The notes under the pieces were generated by a model, which saw nothing but the letters and a program-made list of their open reading frames with translations, made no database searches and had not been told where the DNA came from. DNA of 64,000 bases from a virus. The stretch lies in the IMG/VR virus record IMGVR_UViG_3300034095_000254, one strand, 5' to 3'. Below are positions 39,138-61,481 of the stretch, one piece after another (positions within the stretch are counted from its first letter, which is position 1; the number at the start of each line of letters is the position of its first letter). The position numbers were made by a program, and so were the translations under genes.

Positions 39138-39404
39138 TTATTTTTCGAAAACTGCAATGATAAACTCTTCTTTAATCATTGCTCTTTGTACATCACCAAT
39201 TTTCACTGGAGATGCTTTAGCCCAATCTATCAAAACAACATCATCAATTTTAACATCAGTTACATCTGGACCAACTGCAAGAACAGTTGCCTTTGCTGTA
39301 TTTAAAGGACTGCGAATACCTTCAATAATAATACCAGATTCAGTTTTATCTTCTTTTTTATTCTCTGCGACCAGTACCTGCGTCTTCAATGGCAATACAT
39401 TCAT
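39138..39404 (-). CDS. groES: Co-chaperonin GroES-like (gp31 analogue)
   Basis: PLKTQVLV, KTESGIII, VLAVGPDV. Confidence 0.88.
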   Translation of the reverse strand: MNVLPLKTQVLVAENKKEDKTESGIIIEGIRSPLNTAKATVLAVGPDVTDVKIDDVVLIDWAKASPVKIGDVQRAMIKEEFIIAVFEK

Positions 39405-39427
39405 TATTAAATCCCTATGTTATAAAA

Positions 39428-39736
39428 TTAGTGGATGGTTATTCTGTTACGAGGAAACCATCCGAAACCCTAAGCAGTGTTTAGGCTGCTAATGCGAACT
39501 GTGCGTCGTTTGCGTTTACGGTTTTTTACTTTTTACGACTCTCTGTGTCGTGCTGTCCACTCATTTACTTATTGCCCTGTCGAAACCTAGTCACCCCCAT
39601 CAAAAGTATTTTAGTATGCACTTAATCCAGAGGTGCAACTTTAACGCACATTGGCTGACTAAAATACTTTTGGTGGAGGTGGGGAGAATCGAACTCCCGT
39701 CCAGAACACCTTTCTCTTTGCTTCATACAGCAATAA
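39428..39736 (-). ncRNA. ssrA: Circularly permuted (two-piece) tmRNA; tag (A)ANDAQFALAA
   Basis: Acceptor piece with T-arm and CACCTCCACCA ends at 39671; coding piece starts GGGGGTG at 39598; G3:U70 pair; tag frame 39513-39481. Outer ends approximate. Confidence 0.92.
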
Positions 39737-39741
39737 CCTAC

Positions 39742-39770
39742 ATTATACATTATATTTAGTTACAAGTCAA
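39742..39770 (-). promoter_or_regulatory. Sigma70 promoter with embedded late promoter for tmRNA
   Basis: TTGACT-17-TATAAT with CTAAATA inside the spacer. Confidence 0.75.
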
Positions 39771-40483
39771 ATGTTTTTCAAATTCTTATAATCTAATCTT
39801 AATTTCTTAAAGCCACCAATCCAGTTGTCTCGTTTCTCGATAAACCATCTTGGATCATCACTATCAACTGCCATAATAATCACAAGCCTACCAATAGGTA
39901 TTCCTGTTCGTTCTTCAAATGCTACTGCATATGCTGCAGTTTGCATGAAGTAGTTATGAATGTCATCTCTGTCTTTTGGTTTGCTGGATGTCTTAAAATC
40001 TATGACAGACAGTTTACCTTGGAACTCTGCGATACAGTCAACTGTTCCTGCGACTTGTAAATGGTCAGACCATAACGGAGTCTCCAAGCAGTGGATGTTG
40101 TCGATTTGGTCGAGGAGTGGTCTGATTGAGTTGAACATCTCTGCATCAAACATATCTGGCTCAACATGCTCTCCAAGGAGAAAGTCTTCGCAGTGTTGGT
40201 GAATTCTTGTGCCTCTTGCACTGGCTCTTCCAGAGATTCGGTTGGCTTCTGCTTCTCCGACTCTTTTTCGCCATTCCATGATTCCCTTCGCTGAGTGCAA
40301 TCCTGTAACTGTCGTAACGGAGGGATAGGATTTACCCGATGGGGTTTTGTATAACCTTGTACCATCAGGTTTCGTGTCTCGTTCAAGTTTACCGAAATCA
40401 TGGCGAATAAAGTTTCTTACTTTAGACTGAGAAACTGCTTCCACATCCGCAGGTTGATTTGGCATTTGGGTTTGATATAACAA
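39767..40483 (-). CDS. PD-(D/E)XK exonuclease (start uncertain)
   Basis: YPSVTTV, RGTRIH, AGTVDC, VIDFKTS, YFMQTAAYA. Confidence 0.88.
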   Translation of the reverse strand: MLYQTQMPNQPADVEAVSQSKVRNFIRHDFGKLERDTKPDGTRLYKTPSGKSYPSVTTVTGLHSAKGIMEWRKRVGEAEANRISGRASARGTRIHQHCEDFLLGEHVEPDMFDAEMFNSIRPLLDQIDNIHCLETPLWSDHLQVAGTVDCIAEFQGKLSVIDFKTSSKPKDRDDIHNYFMQTAAYAVAFEERTGIPIGRLVIIMAVDSDDPRWFIEKRDNWIGGFKKLRLDYKNLKNI

Positions 40484-53891: not shown

Positions 53892-54293
53892 TCATCGTGC
53901 TCTCTCCCCTAGTTCTTTATATCCTGCCCATGATGGGTGGATATTATCTTTCTGCATACGATCTGTTCTTAGGATAATATCATTATGCTCATTCGCCACA
54001 TGCCAGACTGCTGACTGTGCCTTTGGAAACTTATCGCTTGGCATGATCCAATAGACTCGTTGTGCACTGGTTAGTTTACGAATAGTTCGTAGTTCTTCCT
54101 CAGTGTCCTTGACGAACGCATCGTTTGAACCAAGAGAGATGATGACATGATCCGCAATGAGTGGTGTATTCTGAATGTTTTTGTTTATCCACTGGTGCGA
54201 GTTAATTCCACCCTTAACGAAGGCAACGCATTCTTTTCTTACATTGGCGATTCCCACTCCAATTGAATCACCTGCTATGATACATTCAAACAT
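53892..54293 (-). CDS. SGNH/GDSL hydrolase-like protein
   Basis: GDSIG, SLGSND, DNIHP. Confidence 0.85.
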   Translation of the reverse strand: MFECIIAGDSIGVGIANVRKECVAFVKGGINSHQWINKNIQNTPLIADHVIISLGSNDAFVKDTEEELRTIRKLTSAQRVYWIMPSDKFPKAQSAVWHVANEHNDIILRTDRMQKDNIHPSWAGYKELGERAR

Positions 54294-54308
54294 ATTATCC
54301 TTAATGTG

Positions 54309-54331
54309 AAAAATCCCACATAAGTGGGATT
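54309..54331 (-). terminator. Intrinsic terminator after the tRNA region
   Basis: AATCCCAC-TTAT-GTGGGATT followed by T run on the minus strand. Confidence 0.65.
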
Positions 54332-54555
54332 GAGTTTATCTACCTCGACCAGCAGACTTTTTCATGGGCTTCTGTGCCAGATTAGTCACTGCCTTATTGA
54401 CTGCCTTACCAGCTTCTCTACGACCAAATCCTTGGCTTTGCAGAGTATGCTTGGCTTTCTTCTTGGCTCGTTTAAGTAGTTTCTTTTGTTCCCACTGCTC
54501 TTTAAAGGTTAGTGGTACTGGTGTAATTTGTTCTGTCATAATATCTCCATATTGT

Positions 54556-54631
54556 TGGAGCGGGATATCAGGTTCGAACTGACGACCTTAACTTTGGCAA
54601 AGTTACGCTCTACCAACTGAGCTAATCCCGC
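54556..54631 (-). tRNA. tRNA-Gly(GCC)
   Basis: Cloverleaf, loop TTGCCAA, CCA encoded; own TTGACA-17-TATAAT promoter at 54645-54673. Confidence 0.95.
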
Positions 54632-54674
54632 ACTCTTACTACTTATTATACAATAATAAACCCTGCATGTCAAA

Positions 54675-55151
54675 TTATGCTGCACGCATGTAAGACTTGT
54701 ATCTGTCTGCAGCGTAGGATGCTGCAAATGCGTTTGGCTTTACGAATGGAACTACATTGCACATACCTTTAATGTAACCAACTGCTTCGTTGATTACGCA
54801 AGATGAACCATGCATTTCGTCTGGGTTAATATCCAGATGCACTTGGACTTCTCTGTCCTCTAACACATCATGCAGTTTTAGGTATAGGTCTGCAATCTTA
54901 TAAACCTCATTCATCAATCGCATTCTTGGCTTATCTTTCTTCTGGTCGTAGCATCTCTCACGAGAGACTTCACCGAAGATTTTACAACCATTATTACCAT
55001 TGATATGAACAACAATCACTAAGATGTAATCAGCGTAGAATTCATTTCCGATATTAAATCGTTCAGAGTCACCACCGATATAAATCTTTGATTCAGGACT
55101 CTGTGCCATGATAAAGTCTTTCACTTCATCAATGTCAATATCTTTACGCAT
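54675..55151 (-). CDS. RNase H-like YkuK-family protein
   Basis: IYIGGDS, RMRLMNEV, VHLDIN, KPNAFAASYAAD. Confidence 0.8.
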   Translation of the reverse strand: MRKDIDIDEVKDFIMAQSPESKIYIGGDSERFNIGNEFYADYILVIVVHINGNNGCKIFGEVSRERCYDQKKDKPRMRLMNEVYKIADLYLKLHDVLEDREVQVHLDINPDEMHGSSCVINEAVGYIKGMCNVVPFVKPNAFAASYAADRYKSYMRAA

Positions 55152-55170
55152 TATACACCTCTATCTTAAA

Positions 55171-55244
55171 TGGAGCGGAGTGAGAGAATCGAACTCTCAA
55201 CGGAAGATTGGAAATCTACAGTTTTACCATTAAACTAACCCCGC
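55171..55244 (-). tRNA. tRNA-Gly(TCC)
   Basis: Loop TTTCCAA, U73, CCA. Confidence 0.93.
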
Positions 55245-55247
55245 ACT

Positions 55248-55321
55248 TGGCGTCCCGATAGGGACTCGAACCCCAACCAATGGTTTTGGAGACCATTATG
55301 CTGCCATTACACCATCGAGAC
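55248..55321 (-). tRNA. tRNA-Trp(CCA)
   Basis: Loop CTCCAAA, G73. Confidence 0.93.
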
Positions 55322-55322
55322 A

Positions 55323-55529
55323 TTATCTTTCTATACCCAACGCTTTATCAATAGCGTCACACATTTCCTTTGGTGCTGCTCTACACGAACACCAACTGAA
55401 TTTTCTACCACATACATCACAGAATGTTCGCTTCTCTCCAAAGATTGTATCAAACTTATCATCGAATTCATTCTTTGGTATAGCGAATGGTCTAGGACTA
55501 CTACCTTTACCACCATCACTCATTGCCAT
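55323..55529 (-). CDS. Small hypothetical protein within the tRNA array
   Basis: AGGAG RBS; SDGGKGSSPRP, CDVC..CSC. Confidence 0.7.
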   Translation of the reverse strand: MAMSDGGKGSSPRPFAIPKNEFDDKFDTIFGEKRTFCDVCGRKFSWCSCRAAPKEMCDAIDKALGIER

Positions 55530-55544
55530 TACTAACTCCTAATT

Positions 55545-55618
55545 TGGTGCTCCGTGAGAGAATCGAACTCCCAATTGATGATTACTAATCAACTGTTATA
55601 CCATTTAACTAACAGAGC
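55545..55618 (-). tRNA. tRNA-Thr(AGT)
   Basis: Loop TTAGTAA; G1-C72 and C2-G71. Confidence 0.88.
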
Positions 55619-55620
55619 AT

Positions 55621-55695
55621 TGGTGGAGGATGGGAGGATCGAACTCCCACTTCATGCTTGCAAAGCACATGTGCTCCCATTATCACTAATCCCCC
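55621..55695 (-). tRNA. tRNA-Ala(TGC)
   Basis: Loop TTTGCAA; G3:U70. Confidence 0.95.
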
Positions 55696-55700
55696 AATAC

Positions 55701-55776
55701 TGGCTCCACAGGGTGGGCTCGAACCACCGACCAAATGATTAACAGTCATCTACTCTACCGACTGAGCTACTGCGGA
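55701..55776 (-). tRNA. tRNA-Asn(GTT)
   Basis: Loop CTGTTAA; G73. Confidence 0.95.
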
Positions 55777-55782
55777 ATAATC

Positions 55783-56019
55783 TTAATACAATCTATCAGG
55801 CATTGACTGCTGTGCTAGTTTCTTCTTCCAGCGTTTCTTTGCAGCACTCTTTGCCATTTTTCTTTTCGTGGTTGGTTTAATGTATGCTTGTCTTTCTCTG
55901 ATATCCATTAACAATCCACTTTCTTCTATGTTCTTTTTGAATTGTCTGAATGCTTTCTCAAACTTACCTTCTTCAACCACAACAACACTACCAAATTCTT
56001 TAACTTTCTTACCTTTCAT
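55783..56019 (-). CDS. rpsU: Ribosomal protein bS21 (start ATG 56019 or TTG 56028)
   Basis: FEKAFRQFKK..EESGLLMDIRERQAYIKPTTKRKMAKSAAKKR. Confidence 0.88.
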   Translation of the reverse strand: MKGKKVKEFGSVVVVEEGKFEKAFRQFKKNIEESGLLMDIRERQAYIKPTTKRKMAKSAAKKRWKKKLAQQSMPDRLY

Positions 56020-56052
56020 GTTTCTCAACAGTTGTCTCCTAGTTATTTTATC

Positions 56053-56126
56053 TGGTGCCCCATGACAGAATCGAACTGCCATTACCTGATTACAAAACAG
56101 GTGTTCTACCATTTAACTAATAGGGC
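56053..56126 (-). tRNA. tRNA-Thr(TGT)
   Basis: Loop TTTGTAA; CCA. Confidence 0.93.
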
Positions 56127-56766
56127 ATAACTCATTTACAAAATCTAATAACAATGTATGATGTCTTCCATCATTCCAATGTTTGTTTATGTATTGCCAT
56201 GGTTTCTCATACCAATACAAAGGTGCTTCTGGATGGCAACCTATCAATCCTATTCTTCCTTGTATGATTGCCATTGGATCACCATTGGCATATCGTGCGA
56301 TTGTTTTGAATTTATCTTCTTCACCAATTAGTGCACAACCATCATAAAAGTACATTTGTTCTTTTGTGTCATTCCATTCTATCTCAGTCACTGTTCCATA
56401 ACTTCTACGAACAGTGGCATTTGGTCTCTTTATGTACTGAACTGGACTGACATCAGTAAGTATATCGAAATACCTGCTTCCAGCCCAATAAGCACCCATG
56501 CAGATGCCAAGATAGTGACCACCACCATCCAAGAATCTGGCGATTCGATTCGCTCTTGTTCTAGTGAAGAAATTAGGATAACTGTCGCTATCACCAATAC
56601 CACCAGGAAAAGCAATAATGTCAATATTGTCAAAGAAATTATCATCATCTAATTCCTTCTCAGTAAAAATTCTTATCTGATACTCTGACGATAACGAATG
56701 TACCATCGCAAATGCACAGTCTTCTGAGCACTCAGGATGATGCAAGTATAATGCCATTCGTTTCAT
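56113..56766 (-). CDS. BPL_N/class I glutamine amidotransferase-like protein
   Basis: FPGG, YLGICMGAY, GCHPE. Confidence 0.85.
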   Translation of the reverse strand: MKRMALYLHHPECSEDCAFAMVHSLSSEYQIRIFTEKELDDDNFFDNIDIIAFPGGIGDSDSYPNFFTRTRANRIARFLDGGGHYLGICMGAYWAGSRYFDILTDVSPVQYIKRPNATVRRSYGTVTEIEWNDTKEQMYFYDGCALIGEEDKFKTIARYANGDPMAIIQGRIGLIGCHPEAPLYWYEKPWQYINKHWNDGRHHTLLLDFVNELCPIS

Positions 56767-56782
56767 ACATTTCTACTTATCT

Positions 56783-56856
56783 TGGTCTCGAGTGGAAGAA
56801 TCGAACTTCCGACACATGCTCCCAAAGCACGAATTTTACCATTAAACTAACCCGAG
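56783..56856 (-). tRNA. tRNA-Pro(TGG)
   Basis: Loop TTTGGGA; C1-G72. Confidence 0.93.
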
Positions 56857-56863
56857 AAAACTT

Positions 56864-56938
56864 TGGTGGTGATGAGTGGAATCGAGCCACTAACCTACTC
56901 CGTATGAAGGAGTTGCACTACCGTTGTGCTACATCACC
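56864..56938 (-). tRNA. tRNA-Met(CAT), probably elongator
   Basis: Loop TTCATAC; G1-C72; variant T-loop (CTCGATT). Confidence 0.8.
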
Positions 56939-56940
56939 AT

Positions 56941-57024
56941 TGGTGCGCAAGGAGAGACTCGAACTCTCAATCCTTTCGGCACGAGTTTCTAAGACTCGCA
57001 TGTATACCATTCCACCACTTGCGC
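56941..57024 (-). tRNA. tRNA-Leu(TAG)
   Basis: Loop CTTAGAA; long variable arm. Confidence 0.95.
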
Positions 57025-57027
57025 ATT

Positions 57028-57104
57028 TGGTTGCAGTGGTTGGATTCGAACCAACGATTTCATGGCTTATGAGACCAGACGGATGACCACTTCCATACAC
57101 TGCG
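57028..57104 (-). tRNA. Initiator-type tRNA-fMet(CAT)
   Basis: C1.A72 mismatch; loop CTCATAA. Confidence 0.82.
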
Positions 57105-57189
57105 ATAATAAATTTGTGGCAGGTGAGGTATCTAGTCAGGATGCACCCCAACTTGCCCATTCTCCTTTTGCTTTCCTTACCACAAAACT

Positions 57190-57264
57190 TGGCGACTCGT
57201 GGGAGAATCGAACTCCCATAAGCGGATAGACAATCCGCTGTAATGACCATTATACTAACGAGCC
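57190..57264 (-). tRNA. tRNA-Asp(GTC)
   Basis: Loop TTGTCTA; G73. Confidence 0.92.
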
Positions 57265-57271
57265 TAAAAAC

Positions 57272-57364
57272 TGGTGGAGCAACTTGGAGTCGAACCAAGA
57301 TTGTTTACCCAGAGGGATCAGATTTACAGTCTGAGGATGCACACGCCATAGCATCAATTGCTCC
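57272..57364 (-). tRNA. tRNA-Tyr(GTA)
   Basis: Loop CTGTAAA; long variable arm; enlarged D-arm. Confidence 0.9.
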
Positions 57365-57369
57365 AATGA

Positions 57370-57516
57370 TATTAGTTTAGTGTTATCGTGCCAATTTGTC
57401 AACAATGTAGCTAGCACTGACAAGCGAATAACAGTTATATCAGACAGTGTCGGTCGCACCCTTACTGTCGAGTAGTGATTGATCAGACCACATACCTTGA
57501 TAACACTAAACTAATA
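57370..57516 (-). ncRNA. Putative structured ncRNA A
   Basis: Perfect 18-bp terminal inverted repeat; fills the gap next to tRNA-Tyr. Confidence 0.55.
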
Positions 57517-57520
57517 CCAC

Positions 57521-57747
57521 ATTTAATTACACTGGGTGTTTGACAGAATAAACAGTTTTGAACCTGCCCTACCATGCCGTCCATGGACTTGTCTGTCGCA
57601 CACATTACATTCCAAGTTGTTCCAGCGTGACTACTGATCGAAGCCTATGCTGATTTCCATCTTTCGTGTAACTCAGAAGTGCCAGTCCGTCAACTGGTTA
57701 CTCACTATCTGAATTACCTACTGGCTTGGTAACCAATGTAATTAAAT
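57521..57747 (-). ncRNA. Putative structured ncRNA B
   Basis: 15-bp terminal helix with one G.U pair on the minus strand; internal T-arm-like GCAGGTTCAAAACTGT. Confidence 0.55.
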
Positions 57748-57748
57748 C

Positions 57749-57823
57749 TGGTACACTGTAGGAGAATCGAACTCCTCTTATGCGGATGAAAACCGCATGT
57801 CCTAACCGATAGACGAACAGTGC
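57749..57823 (-). tRNA. tRNA-Glu(TTC)
   Basis: Loop TTTTCAT. Confidence 0.93.
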
Positions 57824-57957
57824 ATAGTGGTAGTTTTTATCAAGAACTACCAAACTTGCTTGCATGGGAGATTGTAGGCGAGTTGCAACAATCAAGCCAT
57901 CCCTGCCACACACTGCGTATTTACCGCAGATTTAGAGTGGACTTTTGAAGAACAACT

Positions 57958-57986
57958 ATTATACATCAAAACTTCTTACAAGTCAA
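57958..57986 (-). promoter_or_regulatory. Internal sigma70 promoter of the tRNA array
   Basis: TTGACT-17-TATAAT followed by boxA-like TGTTCTTCAAAA; a near-identical promoter is at 58248-58276. Confidence 0.8.
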
Positions 57987-57994
57987 CAACTATC

Positions 57995-58068
57995 TGGAGT
58001 AGGTGGTGAGAATCGAACTCACTTCCATGGGGTTGCAATCCAGTGCCTGTCCAACTGGCTCCACCTAC
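57995..58068 (-). tRNA. tRNA-Cys(GCA)
   Basis: Loop TTGCAAC; U73. Confidence 0.88.
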
Positions 58069-58077
58069 ATTTATCTC

Positions 58078-58152
58078 TGGCACGGCATGGAGGAATCGAA
58101 CCACCATTCTGGCTTTAGAAGAACCATGTCCTATCCGTTGAACGAATGCCGT
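58078..58152 (-). tRNA. tRNA-Arg(TCT)
   Basis: Loop CTTCTAA. Confidence 0.93.
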
Positions 58153-58154
58153 AT

Positions 58155-58238
58155 TGGTACGAGTGGAGGGACTTGAACCCTCAATCAATTAAGCGTCAGA
58201 TTTTAAGTCTGATGTGTATACCATTCCACCACACTCGC
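58155..58238 (-). tRNA. tRNA-Leu(TAA)
   Basis: Loop CTTAAAA; variable arm. Confidence 0.95.
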
Positions 58239-58276
58239 AATAACTCTATTATACATCAAACAATCTTGCAAGTCAA

Positions 58277-58351
58277 TGGTGGGCTGACTGTGAATTGAAC
58301 ACAGACTCAATGAATTATGAGTTCACTGCTTTACCATTAAGCTACCAGCCC
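58277..58351 (-). tRNA. tRNA(CAT), probably Ile2 (lysidine)
   Basis: GGGC start and ACTCATAAT arm typical of Ile2; third CAT tRNA in the array. Confidence 0.75.
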
Positions 58352-58356
58352 ATGTT

Positions 58357-58443
58357 TGGCGGAAGATACAGGAATCGAACCTGTCAGCCCATTTCTGAAC
58401 GGAAGTTTAGCAAACTTCTGTCGCACCTTGCAACGCATCTTCC
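58357..58443 (-). tRNA. tRNA-Ser(GCT)
   Basis: Loop TTGCTAA; variable arm; G73. Confidence 0.9.
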
Positions 58444-58580
58444 AATTCTTTAATCCTATTTGCTGCTTCTTCTAGCAAATCCGATATTCTATCAGGCTTA
58501 CCTTCTTGAACAGATTTTCTACTTTGTATTTGTCTACGAATTTCAGCACGCTTTTGTAAACGATAAACTAAATCATCCAT
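58407..58580 (-). CDS. 57-aa hypothetical protein whose 3' end overlaps tRNA-Ser(GCT)
   Basis: AAGGAG RBS; MDDLVYRLQKRAEIRRQI...DLLEEAA. Confidence 0.7.
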   Translation of the reverse strand: MDDLVYRLQKRAEIRRQIQSRKSVQEGKPDRISDLLEEAANRIKELEDALQGATEVC

Positions 58581-58598
58581 AACATTCTCCTTATATTT

Positions 58599-58673
58599 TG
58601 GTGCGCCATGATGGAATCGAACCACCATCCTGAGTTTCGAAGACTCTAATTCTATCCGTTGAACTAATGACGC
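58599..58673 (-). tRNA. tRNA-Arg(TCG)
   Basis: Loop CTTCGAA. Confidence 0.9.
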
Positions 58674-58679
58674 AAAACT

Positions 58680-58754
58680 TGGTACCTCGTGACAGATTCG
58701 AACTGCCGACCTTCTCCGTGTAAAGGAGACATTCTACCACTGAAATAACGAGGC
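58680..58754 (-). tRNA. tRNA-Val(TAC)
   Basis: Loop TTTACAC. Confidence 0.94.
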
Positions 58755-58762
58755 ACATAATA

Positions 58763-58854
58763 TGGCGGAAGACAGAGGAGTCGAACCCCATCCGATTTCT
58801 CAGAACCCAGTTTTCAAGGCTGGTCGCAGGACCAACCCCGCTGCATTATCTTCC
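58763..58854 (-). tRNA. tRNA-Ser(TGA)
   Basis: Loop CTTGAAA; variable arm; enlarged D-arm. Confidence 0.88.
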
Positions 58855-58861
58855 ATAACTT

Positions 58862-58936
58862 TGGTTGCCAATAGTGGTAACGATCCACTCACCTATCGCT
58901 TATCAAGCGATTGCTCTACCTCTGAGCTAATTGGCA
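58862..58936 (-). tRNA. tRNA-Ile(GAT)
   Basis: Loop TTGATAA; variant T-loop ATCGTTA. Confidence 0.88.
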
Positions 58937-58943
58937 ATAATCT

Positions 58944-59019
58944 TGGTGCTGCCTAGTAGAATCGAACTACTTTCCGAGGATCTTCAATCCCCTGCTATGA
59001 CCACATCAGCTAAAGCAGC
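58944..59019 (-). tRNA. tRNA-Phe(GAA)
   Basis: Loop TTGAAGA. Confidence 0.92.
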
Positions 59020-59029
59020 AAGTATTCTT

Positions 59030-59104
59030 TGGGGTGTCGTATGAGAATTGAACTCATGATGACGGAATCACAATCCGTAGTTTTACCACTAAACTAACAA
59101 CACC
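59030..59104 (-). tRNA. tRNA-His(GTG)
   Basis: Loop TTGTGAT; G-1:C73. Confidence 0.93.
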
Positions 59105-59109
59105 ATAAT

Positions 59110-59183
59110 TGGTAGGAGCACAGAGAATTGAACTCTGGTTAATAGGTTAAAAGCCTACTACTTTACCACTAAGTTATACTCCC
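59110..59183 (-). tRNA. tRNA-Lys(TTT)
   Basis: Loop CTTTTAA. Confidence 0.93.
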
Positions 59184-59249
59184 AAACAGATGCGCACTAC
59201 ATGGACATGAGCCCACTAGTCACCTTTTGAGTTAGAGTGCGCATTTGTT

Positions 59250-59323
59250 TGGCAGGGGATACAAGAATCGAACTTGTAATCTCGGAATCAAAATCCGATG
59301 TTATACCACTTAACTAATCCCCA
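59250..59323 (-). tRNA. tRNA-Gln(TTG)
   Basis: Loop TTTTGAT; U1-A72, G73. Confidence 0.93.
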
Positions 59324-59336
59324 ACAGAATCCCGAA

Positions 59337-59349
59337 TTGTAAAAGAACA
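59337..59349 (-). promoter_or_regulatory. boxA-like antitermination element
   Basis: TGTTCTTTTACAA compared with rrn boxA TGCTCTTTAACAA; 13 nt before the first tRNA. Confidence 0.6.
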
Positions 59350-59371
59350 ATATTACTAGCACGATGGCTAT

Positions 59372-59410
59372 AAAACAAAAAACCCTCTGGACTTTCATCT
59401 CAGAGGGTTT
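59372..59410 (-). terminator. Intrinsic terminator (attenuator) in the tRNA operon leader
   Basis: AAACCCTCTG-11 nt-CAGAGGGTTTTTTGTTTT. Confidence 0.85.
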
Positions 59411-59431
59411 GGGTAAGTAGACTGGTGTCAG

Positions 59432-59557
59432 TTACTTCTTATCCAAACCCTCGGCATCCTCAATCGCATTATATCCAAATGATGTGCGTGAGCATGTCCA
59501 GCCACTTAATAGCGGGAGATGTCTTTGCATTTGTTTGGATATCATTTTCGATTTCAT
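59432..59557 (-). CDS. Putative attenuator leader peptide (41 aa)
   Basis: MKSKMISKQMQRHLPLLSGWTCSRTSFGYNAIEDAEGLDKK*; ATG at predicted +1; last codons overlap the antiterminator strand. Confidence 0.72.
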   Translation of the reverse strand: MKSKMISKQMQRHLPLLSGWTCSRTSFGYNAIEDAEGLDKK

Positions 59558-59563
59558 GATTGA

Positions 59564-59592
59564 ATTATACTACACCTTTGATTATTTGTCAA
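59564..59592 (-). promoter_or_regulatory. Consensus sigma70 promoter for the leader and tRNA operon
   Basis: TTGACA-17-TATAAT. Confidence 0.88.
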
Positions 59593-59660
59593 GCACTATC
59601 TGAAATAACCTTACATCTTGTAGGGTTTTCTTTCAGACAGTAATCTATTTAGTCACTATT

Positions 59661-60110
59661 TTAGTTCACTATTGAATTAAAGTCAACTTTTTCAACATTT
59701 ATTTTACATTTTTGCAAGAAAGATACACCATCCTCGTCTCTGTAAGAGTGACGATAGTAAACTTTATCTATACCTGCACCATGAATTAACTTAGCACAAT
59801 GAATGCAAGGAGCATGAGTGCAGAATAAACTGGAGCCATTGCCTGATTCACCATCACGAGCCAATTTGATAATTGCGTTTGCCTCTGCATGTATAACCTC
59901 ATCTTTTGTTACTGTTGTAATTGTGTCATCTGAATGTTGCACGATGTTCTCACATTCGTTTGTCCATCCAGCTGGCATACCATTGTATCCGATTGAAATG
60001 ATACGATTGTCTTTTACGACAACCGCACCAACCTGCAATCGCTTTGCACTGGACAACTGGGCGAATCTCTCCGCAGTGTCCATGAATGCATCAATCCATT
60101 TTTGTTTCAT
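59661..60110 (-). CDS. dCMP deaminase
   Basis: VGAVVV, GYNG, HAEANA, PCIHC. Confidence 0.95.
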   Translation of the reverse strand: MKQKWIDAFMDTAERFAQLSSAKRLQVGAVVVKDNRIISIGYNGMPAGWTNECENIVQHSDDTITTVTKDEVIHAEANAIIKLARDGESGNGSSLFCTHAPCIHCAKLIHGAGIDKVYYRHSYRDEDGVSFLQKCKINVEKVDFNSIVN

Positions 60111-60760
60111 CGTACTACTGCTTGTCCTACGACTGCTCCAGGTTTCTGTAATGCTTCATCACGCTTGCGTTTATATTCTTCATTGTCCACTTGCATCAAC
60201 TGCATTGTATTTGGCGCAACTGCAGATACCTTTGGTTCATCTTCCAACTCTTTGAACTTGTCTTCACGATTCTTGTTAGCGTTAGCTGGTTGTGTCAATC
60301 GTTTAGCATCTTCTGTTGCAATCTTAAACTGCACATATGCACGATACACATCACCCTCTTTGAACACAGCGATGTTCTCTCGTTTGAACATGCCAAGTGC
60401 TTGCTTCACACGAACCTTTGATACACGATCGATCTCTCGTTCAACAGCAGAACCAGATCCAGCAGTTTCAATTGTGGACTCACGAGTAACAGAATCAACA
60501 TCGGTCTTTAGTCGTGCTGCAAGTTGAATCTTGGCATTGAGTGTTGCCTTGTCAATTGCAAACTGCATATCTTTCGATACATCAGTCGCAGTGACCACGA
60601 TAAACTTCGTGTCATCTGGATCTTTTGCAAGATACCATTGAGGAATGTTATCGAGTTTGTTGGCTGGAATCTCAACTGTTTTGTTGGGGTCTGCCTTAAA
60701 GGTTGAACATCCTGATAAGGCTATCACAGATGCCATTGTACAAATCATAATATATTTCAT
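60107..60760 (-). CDS. Lipoprotein (LPP20-like)
   Basis: Lipobox LSGC; IPQWYL; AIDKATLNAKIQLA. Confidence 0.75.
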   Translation of the reverse strand: MKYIMICTMASVIALSGCSTFKADPNKTVEIPANKLDNIPQWYLAKDPDDTKFIVVTATDVSKDMQFAIDKATLNAKIQLAARLKTDVDSVTRESTIETAGSGSAVEREIDRVSKVRVKQALGMFKRENIAVFKEGDVYRAYVQFKIATEDAKRLTQPANANKNREDKFKELEDEPKVSAVAPNTMQLMQVDNEEYKRKRDEALQKPGAVVGQAVVR

Positions 60761-60761
60761 T

Positions 60762-61481
60762 TCAAATTCTCCGTTTAATCACAAAATTGTGGTACACTAC
60801 TCGCCTAGCATTGATAGGCAATGACGAAATCTGTCGATAAATCTCATCTCTCGTCATACTGCTTCTAAAAGTAATCTTAACTTTGGAAAATATTGCCATC
60901 AGTGTATCTTTGCTTTGTGGATCATTAGACATAATGTCTGCGTTCCACCAGATACCATTTGGTAATACTAACTTCCCATCAATAAGATTGCTCTTAATTC
61001 CATCATAAGGATACATTTGATGCATCTTGTCTCCGTAAACACTGAACAAGTATACATACAATGGCTCTTTAGTAATAACATCAAACTTGTATCGTTCTCC
61101 ATTGACTGCAATGTTACTGGCATTCTCAATGTCTCCTGCCAGTTGTCTGCTTGGTTCAATCTCAACCTTAACTTCAACAACACATGTATCTACAAATTTA
61201 CTTTTCTTCGGTTTAATCTTTTCTGTTATAACTCTCTTCAGAGTACCAGCAGATTCAACCTCAGTCTTCTTAATATATTCGCAGTCAACACCTTCTGCAT
61301 TTCTTTCTCTGCAAATCTGTTGCTTCTTTACTTCAAACTCTTTCTCAGCGTATCGTTCGATCGCATCACTGACTGCAAATGCTTTTGCTAACTCACAGTC
61401 AGGTGCTTCACCAGTTCCAAACGAAACATCTGCGTAGGCATTGGCACAAAGCACCAACCATAATATAGCAAACTTCTTCAC
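60762..61481 (-). CDS. Secreted/periplasmic protein
   Basis: Signal peptide ending AYA; four Cys in the mature N-terminal domain. Confidence 0.7.
   Translation of the reverse strand: MKKFAILWLVLCANAYADVSFGTGEAPDCELAKAFAVSDAIERYAEKEFEVKKQQICRERNAEGVDCEYIKKTEVESAGTLKRVITEKIKPKKSKFVDTCVVEVKVEIEPSRQLAGDIENASNIAVNGERYKFDVITKEPLYVYLFSVYGDKMHQMYPYDGIKSNLIDGKLVLPNGIWWNADIMSNDPQSKDTLMAIFSKVKITFRSSMTRDEIYRQISSLPINARRVVYHNFVIKRRI

Follow-up and report, generated by a model that had tools for sequence, protein, structure and literature searches.

A stretch of 64,000 nucleotides (nt) from the IMG/VR virus record IMGVR_UViG_3300034095_000254, hereafter called the window, was analyzed. It belongs to a T4-like freshwater phage in which a gp5 OB domain and T4 RNase H are present. 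On the minus strand, an array of 26 tRNA genes begins with tRNA-Gln at 59323-59250, and a compact module is located just upstream of this gene, at 59337-59592. The module consists of a promoter (P1), a short open reading frame (ORF), two overlapping hairpins, one of which is an intrinsic terminator, and a boxA-like element; a dCMP deaminase gene adjoins it on the upstream side. This module is probably a ribosome-dependent transcription attenuator which heads the tRNA array and whose leader peptide is a pangram, containing all or nearly all amino acids. The parts of the module, their conservation, the mutually exclusive and covarying helices, the position before the first tRNA, and the selection for amino-acid and codon coverage are directly supported. 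An attenuator with broad codon sampling had been proposed earlier from the window alone (the original prediction). The attenuator layout turned out to be conserved and the broad sampling was confirmed, whereas the expected lack of peptide conservation and the dependence of ten tRNAs did not hold.

Promoter P1 (59564..59592, minus) has the form TTGACA-17-TATAAT, with 12/12 consensus positions. It is one of two 12/12 promoter matches in the region 54000-61000, and it is kept in relatives. The ATG at 59557 (minus) is located 6 nt past the -10 element of P1; in relatives the distance from the end of the -10 element to the ATG is 6-7 nt, with 10 nt in three variants. A leaderless transcript is therefore expected. 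The leader ORF (59432..59557, minus) has 41 codons and ends with the stop codon TAA at 59434-59432. It includes 19 of the 20 amino acids (Val is absent), 31 distinct codons, and 27 of the 32 half-box decoding classes. The promoter, the ATG, the 41-codon ORF and the numbers of amino acids and codons given in the original prediction were all reproduced on the minus strand; the Ser, Leu, Gly, Arg, and Ile codons were listed correctly, and reading of the sequence confirmed that each of the codons 12-24 is a first occurrence. The ORF is intact in 32 of the 32 distinct DNA variants (37-46 codons), with an invariant ATG and with indels in frame, and its stop codon is inside a hairpin in all 32.

AGGA is found 11-12 nt from the ATG in some relatives. 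This candidate Shine-Dalgarno sequence was rejected as evidence for translation, as it overlaps a -10-like AATAAT, which is placed 6 nt before the ATG in those relatives. In the clade of the window, an extra Asn codon makes a perfect TATAAT within the ORF (59472-59477, minus; Tyr-Asn codons). TGGACA is present 21 nt upstream of it, too distant for a standard promoter. The TATAAT may be a sigma-70-dependent pause element, or it may have arisen by chance.

The 5' arm of the antiterminator (region 2; 59438..59452, minus) corresponds to codons 36-40 of the leader ORF. The 3' arm (region 3; 59403..59417, minus) includes 59410-59403, which is common to the 5' arm of the terminator. Between 59452-59438 and 59417-59403, 14 of the 15 positions are paired, with one A.C mismatch. 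The apical stem, ACTG/CAGT (59421..59432, minus), begins at the final base of the stop codon; its sequence differs freely among relatives, and the stem is formed every time. The intrinsic terminator (59372..59410, minus) has a 10-bp stem (59410-59401 with 59389-59380), a 3-bp inner helix, a GAAA loop of the GNRA type, and a U6-G-U4 tract that ends at 59372. It was overlooked by a simple terminator scan, whose loop limit was 8 nt. Because the terminator and the antiterminator have 8 bases in common, they are mutually exclusive structures; both the 14/15 pairing and the exclusivity had been claimed before.

When 30 distinct sequences were folded singly, all 30 formed an antiterminator of -19.9 to -26.8 kcal/mol as well as a terminator of -15.1 to -21.0 kcal/mol that has a strand in common with it. 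The antiterminator was always more stable than the overlapped terminator, and it is present in most of the full-length minimum-energy folds. Helix pairing and covariation were calculated from a MAFFT alignment not fitted to any structure. The base of the antiterminator is paired in 90.7% of the cells and includes one U-A/G-C compensatory pair; its covariation score was reached by none of 500 shuffles and was above all slid controls. The terminator is paired in 97.3%, with 4 compensatory pairs among the 30 sequences. The U-run of region 2 varies in length in step with the A-run of region 3 (T3/A3 versus T4/A4), and an A-to-G change in the shared strand leads to G.U pairs in both alternative helices. 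Thus, the covarying hairpins expected in relatives were found for both structures, and the ORF and the antiterminator occur wherever the terminator does.

The conserved segment GAGAUGAAAG of the terminator loop can pair, by A-U and G.U, with the invariant U-tract UUUUUGUUUU and also with the single G in this tract (59372-59400, minus). The minimum-energy fold in which the antiterminator is present contains this pairing. It may represent a third conformation or chance.

The distribution of the module was analyzed with 80 IMG/VR loci retrieved via the neighboring dCMP deaminase. The module was detected with nhmmer in 41 of the 80, and four divergent contigs fetched by exact peptide increased the total to ~45. 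A profile search against 5.8 billion proteins revealed ~50 clusters of the leader peptide, all unnamed; no Pfam domain was found in these clusters, and no source gives them a name. The module is always located directly before tRNA-Gln(UUG) at the array head, at a distance of 28-282 nt, with tRNA-Glu taking this place once. A conserved ORF position ahead of the tRNA arrays, as the original prediction expected, was thus seen in all ~45 loci. The gene upstream of the module differs by contig: dCMP deaminase, fatty-acid desaturase, AhpC, or an unknown gene. The module is tied to the array head rather than to the gene upstream. Neither a DNA search nor a tblastn search with the leader peptide found a close cultured relative of the window, and the tblastn search detected the module in no cultured phage. 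A pattern scan of bacterial genomes yielded only two chance matches and one 2-kb phage-like contig; without a true genomic match, the module is not a host feature. A typical module with 43 codons and all 20 amino acids was observed in a contig (L087; CAZDRR010000111.1, 2154 bp) from a metagenome-assembled genome of Candidatus Saccharibacteria, most likely a mis-binned phage fragment. No Rfam family matched the element at the gathering score; the best scores were 20.7 bits for L10_leader (cut-off 44) and 14.1 for His_leader (cut-off 49), the latter on the wrong strand.

The composition of the leader peptide is the hallmark of the family. Among 68 distinct peptides (37-47 amino acids), 49 are complete with all 20 amino acids, 19 lack a single one, and none lacks more. 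A divergent member with only 32 codons still includes 19 amino acids. The earlier claim of a leader that covers the full range of amino acids along with many codons therefore holds strongly, with 19 or 20 amino acids in 68/68 members. No single amino acid is enriched in the leader; all 20 are represented, the rare ones once, and the pangram is meaningful only in the frame of the leader ORF. The original prediction proposed a comparison with 41-codon windows of the genome. With those taken from the long ORFs of the window, the probability is 0.038 for at least 19 amino acids and 0.012 for at least 31 codons, a moderate departure. With a forced initial Met and the phage's own genes, the null mean is 15.9 +/- 1.75 amino acids, and the probabilities are 0.05 for at least 19 and 0.006 for 20. 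The coverage of the window's single leader is thus moderately unusual, and it is significant because it is kept in every relative.

Shuffling of the alignment within columns gave 10.9 complete sets on average against 49 observed (0/2000 shuffles). The same shuffle with 16 representatives of less than 65% identity gave 2.1 against 11 observed (0/3000). Inheritance from an ancestor with the full set does not account for the pangram. The complete sets exceed the shuffle expectation because of compensatory relocation of rare residues. Cys, His, and Tyr each appear about once per leader. In figures not corrected for phylogeny, His is found elsewhere in 30/30 members when missing from its usual column, versus 2/38 when present there; the corresponding values are 25/25 versus 0/43 for Tyr, and 21/32 versus 0/36 for Cys. 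Cys re-emerges at six or more different positions.

The choice of codons is also broad. The members use 25-29 of the 32 half-box classes against a null of 20.2 +/- 2.1 (99th percentile 25), and 30-38 distinct codons against a null of 24.8 (99th percentile 31). Given the peptide and the codon usage of the phage, the codon diversity of 16 representatives was 525 against 473 +/- 7 expected, and 16/16 were at or above their own null mean. Nearly all members include three Ser classes, both Arg families, and three or four Gly codons, and the window leader favors rarer synonymous codons (P = 0.0008). When two sequences have an amino acid in common, they also agree in its codon in 77% of the cases, versus 45% in the adjacent dCMP deaminase gene at equal divergence. 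Synonymous drift is limited to the Leu-Pro-Leu codons. The strong conservation of the third codon positions, together with the stable fold of the RNA in the window (z = -4.1), would fit a non-coding small RNA of ~186 nt in which the ORF is incidental. This explanation is extremely unlikely, as the ORF, the ATG, and the stop position are kept in 32/32 variants although indels are numerous (and invariably in frame), the changes among the Leu-Pro-Leu codons are synonymous, the amino-acid pangram is confined to the ORF frame, and Rfam includes no matching family.

Downstream of the terminator, the boxA-like element and then the first tRNA were confirmed in the predicted order. The boxA-like element TGTTCTTTTACAA (59337..59349, minus) occurs once in the window and shares 10 of 12 bases with the core GCTCTTTAACAA of the Escherichia coli rrnB boxA; it is a putative site for NusB/NusE. 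It is kept before tRNA-Gln in at least 17 variants, while the count of the motif in the window, taken alone, is not above chance. After the terminator and ahead of boxA, a short boxB-like hairpin, TAGC-6 nt-GCTA (59357..59370, minus), was read from the sequence. Nine tRNA genes (Gln, Lys, His, Phe, Ile, Val, Arg, Ser, and Met-type CAU; 58277..59323, minus) precede the first internal array promoter (58248..58276, minus; 11/12), and the second is located at 57986-57958 (minus). Both internal promoters had been reported by the original prediction; the number of tRNAs before the first one is nine, not ten. In the window, no promoter of at least 10/12 is present between the terminator and the internal promoter 58276-58248, and in the clade of the window no promoter-like site was found between the terminator and tRNA-Gln. 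These nine tRNAs therefore depend on P1 and need readthrough of the terminator, while the tRNAs past the internal promoter can do without P1.

The module is likely to function as follows. The host sigma-70 RNA polymerase would start at or next to the ATG, and a ribosome would load once the 5' end emerges. The stop codon and the five or six codons before it would constitute the 5' arm of a long hairpin, whose 3' arm doubles as the 5' arm of the terminator. With no ribosome at the end of the ORF, the antiterminator would form, and transcription would proceed past boxA into tRNA-Gln and the later tRNAs. Readthrough should be the default without a ribosome, because the antiterminator is made first, is more stable, and region 2 has no upstream partner. 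If the first ribosome keeps pace, it would cover the arm at the last codons and the stop codon, the terminator would form, and an RNA of ~186 nt would be produced. The leader would act as a near-minimal pangram, with each amino acid present about once and with a wide set of codons, rare ones often among them. Whenever almost any charged tRNA is scarce, or translation is slow in general, the ribosome would be delayed and tRNA transcription would increase, while ample translation capacity would shut it down. We infer the translation of the ORF, the direction of the switch, the physiological signal and the role of the invariant residues; the direction from stall to readthrough is deduced from structure.

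The signal to which the switch responds can be interpreted in two ways. Tentatively, the module could be a universal phage-encoded sensor of charged-tRNA supply, whose leader would probe almost every amino acid and numerous isoacceptors during a single passage of a single ribosome. It would turn the array off again when translation proceeds without hindrance, thereby autoregulating the viral tRNA pool, and it would induce the replacement tRNAs upon any host tRNA shortage. Such a shortage would be caused by starvation, by an early mismatch in codon usage, or by host defense nucleases that cleave tRNAs; the link to anticodon-nuclease defense is speculation. It is less probable, and in our opinion unlikely, that the switch senses general ribosome coupling or availability rather than single charged tRNAs, with the composition of the leader only averaging the elongation speed. 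The triggers would then be host shut-off, ribosome-targeting toxins, antibiotics, or the efficiency of leaderless initiation. The same hairpin evidence fits this explanation; with no conserved 1:2 protector, any failure of translation leads to readthrough, the leader codons are not matched to the phage tRNAs, and known attenuators such as vmlR (PMC9226507) answer general translation inhibition. However, the exactly-once presence and the relocation of rare residues are left unexplained, as are the selected identity and diversity of synonymous codons.

Several observations weigh against an attenuator that reads composition. Val is absent in the clade of the window, and Cys is absent in 11 members. 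The sequences are related, and thus the shuffle and Fisher figures overstate their independence; the number of different relocation solutions argues for many independent events. The leader codons are not tuned to the phage's own 26 tRNAs, as 17 cognate codons are present against 20.9 expected. Without enrichment for own-tRNA codons, the ORF samples the whole tRNA pool and not the contribution of the phage. Asp (always) and Glu (mostly) are located 3-12 nt before the antiterminator arm. Sensing of Asp and Glu depends on the leading edge of the ribosome; it could be possible with an edge at ~+11 from the P site, and not at +15/+16. No conserved upstream partner of region 2, which would form a 1:2 protector or pause hairpin, was found. 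In the window, ATATCCAAAC could form a trp-like 1:2 pairing with either region 2 or the Phe-Gly-Tyr codons, but this candidate pairing is not conserved. The small hairpin H1 (59502..59515, minus; 5 bp with a 4-nt loop) over the Pro-Leu-Leu-Ser-Gly codons shows compensatory changes in one clade. H1 is missing from the K-Q-L-P-Q clade and was rejected as a universal pause hairpin; its function as a pause hairpin is a guess. A pause element that would synchronize ribosome and polymerase was thus not established. Finally, one or two strong consensus promoters are located between the terminator and boxA/tRNA-Gln in about half of the variants. In those phages, the switch only adds to tRNA transcription and does not gate it. 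The predicted gating of the array could thus apply to the clade of the window, with nine tRNAs, and not to the approximately half of the relatives with separate promoters.

The conserved residues of the peptide are a further point of the same kind. M1, L14, P15, W20, D34, and G37 are invariant and R24 is nearly so, although a pure composition sensor needs none of them. The original prediction expected no peptide conservation, and these six residues contradict it. They may have a second function, as a trans-acting peptide, an arrest motif, or an RNA/DNA signal. By analogy with peTrpL, a leader peptide acting in trans (PMC7298713), this leader peptide could also act in trans.

An ordinary small protein is an alternative. 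The ORF would be a phage gene with its own early promoter and terminator, whose peptide acts in trans, with a host factor or tRNA metabolism as possible targets; the hairpin that spans the stop codon would serve mRNA stability or translation termination, and the adjacency to tRNA would be conserved gene order. The invariant residues and the motif kept over 68 members support this possibility, as do the many relatives with separate tRNA promoters past the terminator and the existence of leader peptides with trans functions (PMC7298713). Other observations make it improbable. No fold was predicted by AlphaFold from the peptide alignment (predicted local distance difference test score 58.8, with no secondary structure). 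The pooled ratio of nonsynonymous to synonymous substitution rates (dN/dS) is 0.6-0.75 in frame against ~1.1 in shifted frames. This weak signal results from the many positions that tolerate amino-acid change and from unusually constrained synonymous sites, which are more constrained than those of the neighboring gene. In some conserved triplets, such as NCA-CGC-NCA, the second and third bases are fixed while the amino acid varies, which indicates constraint at the nucleotide or codon level. The pangram with compensatory relocation lacks an obvious meaning for a folded or binding peptide, an antiterminator that always beats the overlapped terminator in stability would be odd at a plain gene end, and the nine tRNAs in the clade of the window have no other promoter.

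The invariant L-P, W, R, D, and G would also suit a nascent-peptide arrest element like TnaC or SecM, in which a small molecule or factor sets the terminator choice. The Trp is located ~12-14 residues before a conserved A-I-E-x-D stretch, a spacing which we take to be reminiscent of the distance from Trp to the P site in TnaC and SecM. This is nevertheless very unlikely. No resemblance of the sequence to known arrest peptides or to a Pfam family was found, a ribosome stalled near codons 32-34 would border on the antiterminator arm, which leaves the outcome ambiguous, and the pangram is unexplained.

Other heads were observed in the related arrays. In L026/L027, a degenerate module is present ~220-60 nt upstream of tRNA-Met (4916). 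Its ORF has 30 codons and 16 amino acids, and the antiterminator and terminator are retained; a 15-codon mini-ORF with a Shine-Dalgarno sequence follows, which supplies Trp and Gln. The arrays headed by tRNA-Thr were considered as carriers of the module and rejected, because the head differs in these more distant relatives and lacks a pangram ORF. In these loci (L059, L062, L065, L066, L068, L071, L076, L079, and L080), the head is ~300 nt upstream of the first tRNA and consists of a consensus promoter, a conserved structured RNA of ~90 nt, a basic ORF of ~54 amino acids, and tRNA-Thr, in this order. The ~90-nt RNA starts with GCGGT and ends with CCACCGCTCCA; it has tRNA-like ends and no Rfam match.

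Upstream of the module in the window, an inverted repeat forming a CCCTAC..GTAAGG hairpin (59604..59630, minus) is located 11 nt from the -35 element of P1. Hairpins of the type CCCTAC-N4-6-GTAGGG precede the P1 promoters and the extra promoters past the terminator (P2) in relatives. The CCCTAC-type repeat is just upstream of P2 in L042, L043, L056, L058, and L060, and L056 has two tandem copies. The repeat at 59604..59630 may terminate the dCMP deaminase gene, or it may function as a terminator-promoter cassette or as an operator recognized by a regulator of the phage.

The window also includes a two-piece permuted transfer-messenger RNA (tmRNA) of the betaproteobacterial type at 39390-39784 (minus), with the tag ANDAQFALAA. 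It scored 140 bits with Rfam beta_tmRNA and 134 bits with tmRNA_permuted, and its type hints at a betaproteobacterial host. Two protein genes are located within the tRNA array (54675-55151 and 56113-56766, both minus). One of them is RNase H-like (PF04308), and the other has a domain similar to biotin-ligase-N/class I glutamine amidotransferase.

The reason for the large tRNA arrays of phages is still debated, and to our knowledge their regulation is essentially unknown. Full-text literature searches revealed neither a leader peptide described as containing all amino acids nor an attenuator of tRNA genes, phage or bacterial. By these searches, the module, if interpreted correctly, would be the first attenuator controlling tRNA genes and the first leader peptide selected for all amino acids instead of one. 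A virus would then gauge overall decoding capacity with one small ORF, and when the phage tRNAs are needed would become directly testable. The part is ~190 nt with a consensus sigma-70 promoter and an intrinsic terminator, and thus it is expected to be functional in reporters in E. coli and in purified translation systems. It would also offer a compact natural design for a general reporter of translation stress or tRNA depletion. The exactly-once rare residues are a new comparative signature, which could be used to find similar sensors elsewhere.

In its predicted architecture, the module shows the structural features of leader-peptide attenuators and lacks two of the trp/his type, the enrichment for one amino acid and the 1:2 hairpin. 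The short leader ORF, the intrinsic terminator, and the strand-sharing alternative hairpin are common to the trp, his, leu, thr, ilv, and pheA attenuators. As in the trp/his type, the position of the first ribosome would choose the hairpin, and a ribosome at the leader end would favor termination. Leaders of the trp/his type are enriched in one amino acid, whereas this leader carries all 20 about once. Unlike the trp/his type, the module has no conserved 1:2 hairpin, and thus no translation should give readthrough and not termination. In contrast to the attenuators of amino-acid operons, it is leaderless and phage-borne and would regulate tRNAs instead of biosynthetic enzymes, and it matches no Rfam leader family, unlike the trp, his, leu, and thr leaders.

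Among the attenuators that sense the inhibition of translation, to which ermC, cat, and bmrB presumably belong, vmlR shows a similar switch. In vmlR of Bacillus subtilis (PMC9226507), stalling on an upstream ORF switches the terminator to the antiterminator in answer to general slowing, as proposed for the module. Systems of the vmlR type respond to drug-bound ribosomes in specific peptide contexts and control resistance genes, whereas the composition of this leader points to charged-tRNA supply, with tRNAs as the output. As in the rrn leaders with boxA, such as E. coli rrnB (PMC2176067), the boxA-like element follows a small hairpin and precedes untranslated stable-RNA genes. Unlike in the rrn leaders, it follows the attenuator, whose terminator it cannot influence; it is likely an accessory part and not the switch.

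T-box riboswitches follow the same logic, in which shortage of charged tRNA induces genes for translation supply through the choice between terminator and antiterminator. They differ in binding one specific uncharged tRNA, in having no ORF, and in controlling synthetase or amino-acid genes, and no T-box features are present in the module. Two studies on phage tRNAs and tRNA-targeting defense (PMC10264068, PMC11555353) concern, by their titles and abstracts, the tRNAs themselves. The anti-defense tRNA arrays resemble that of the window in being large sets that could replace depleted host tRNAs, and they offer a plausible biological setting for the module.

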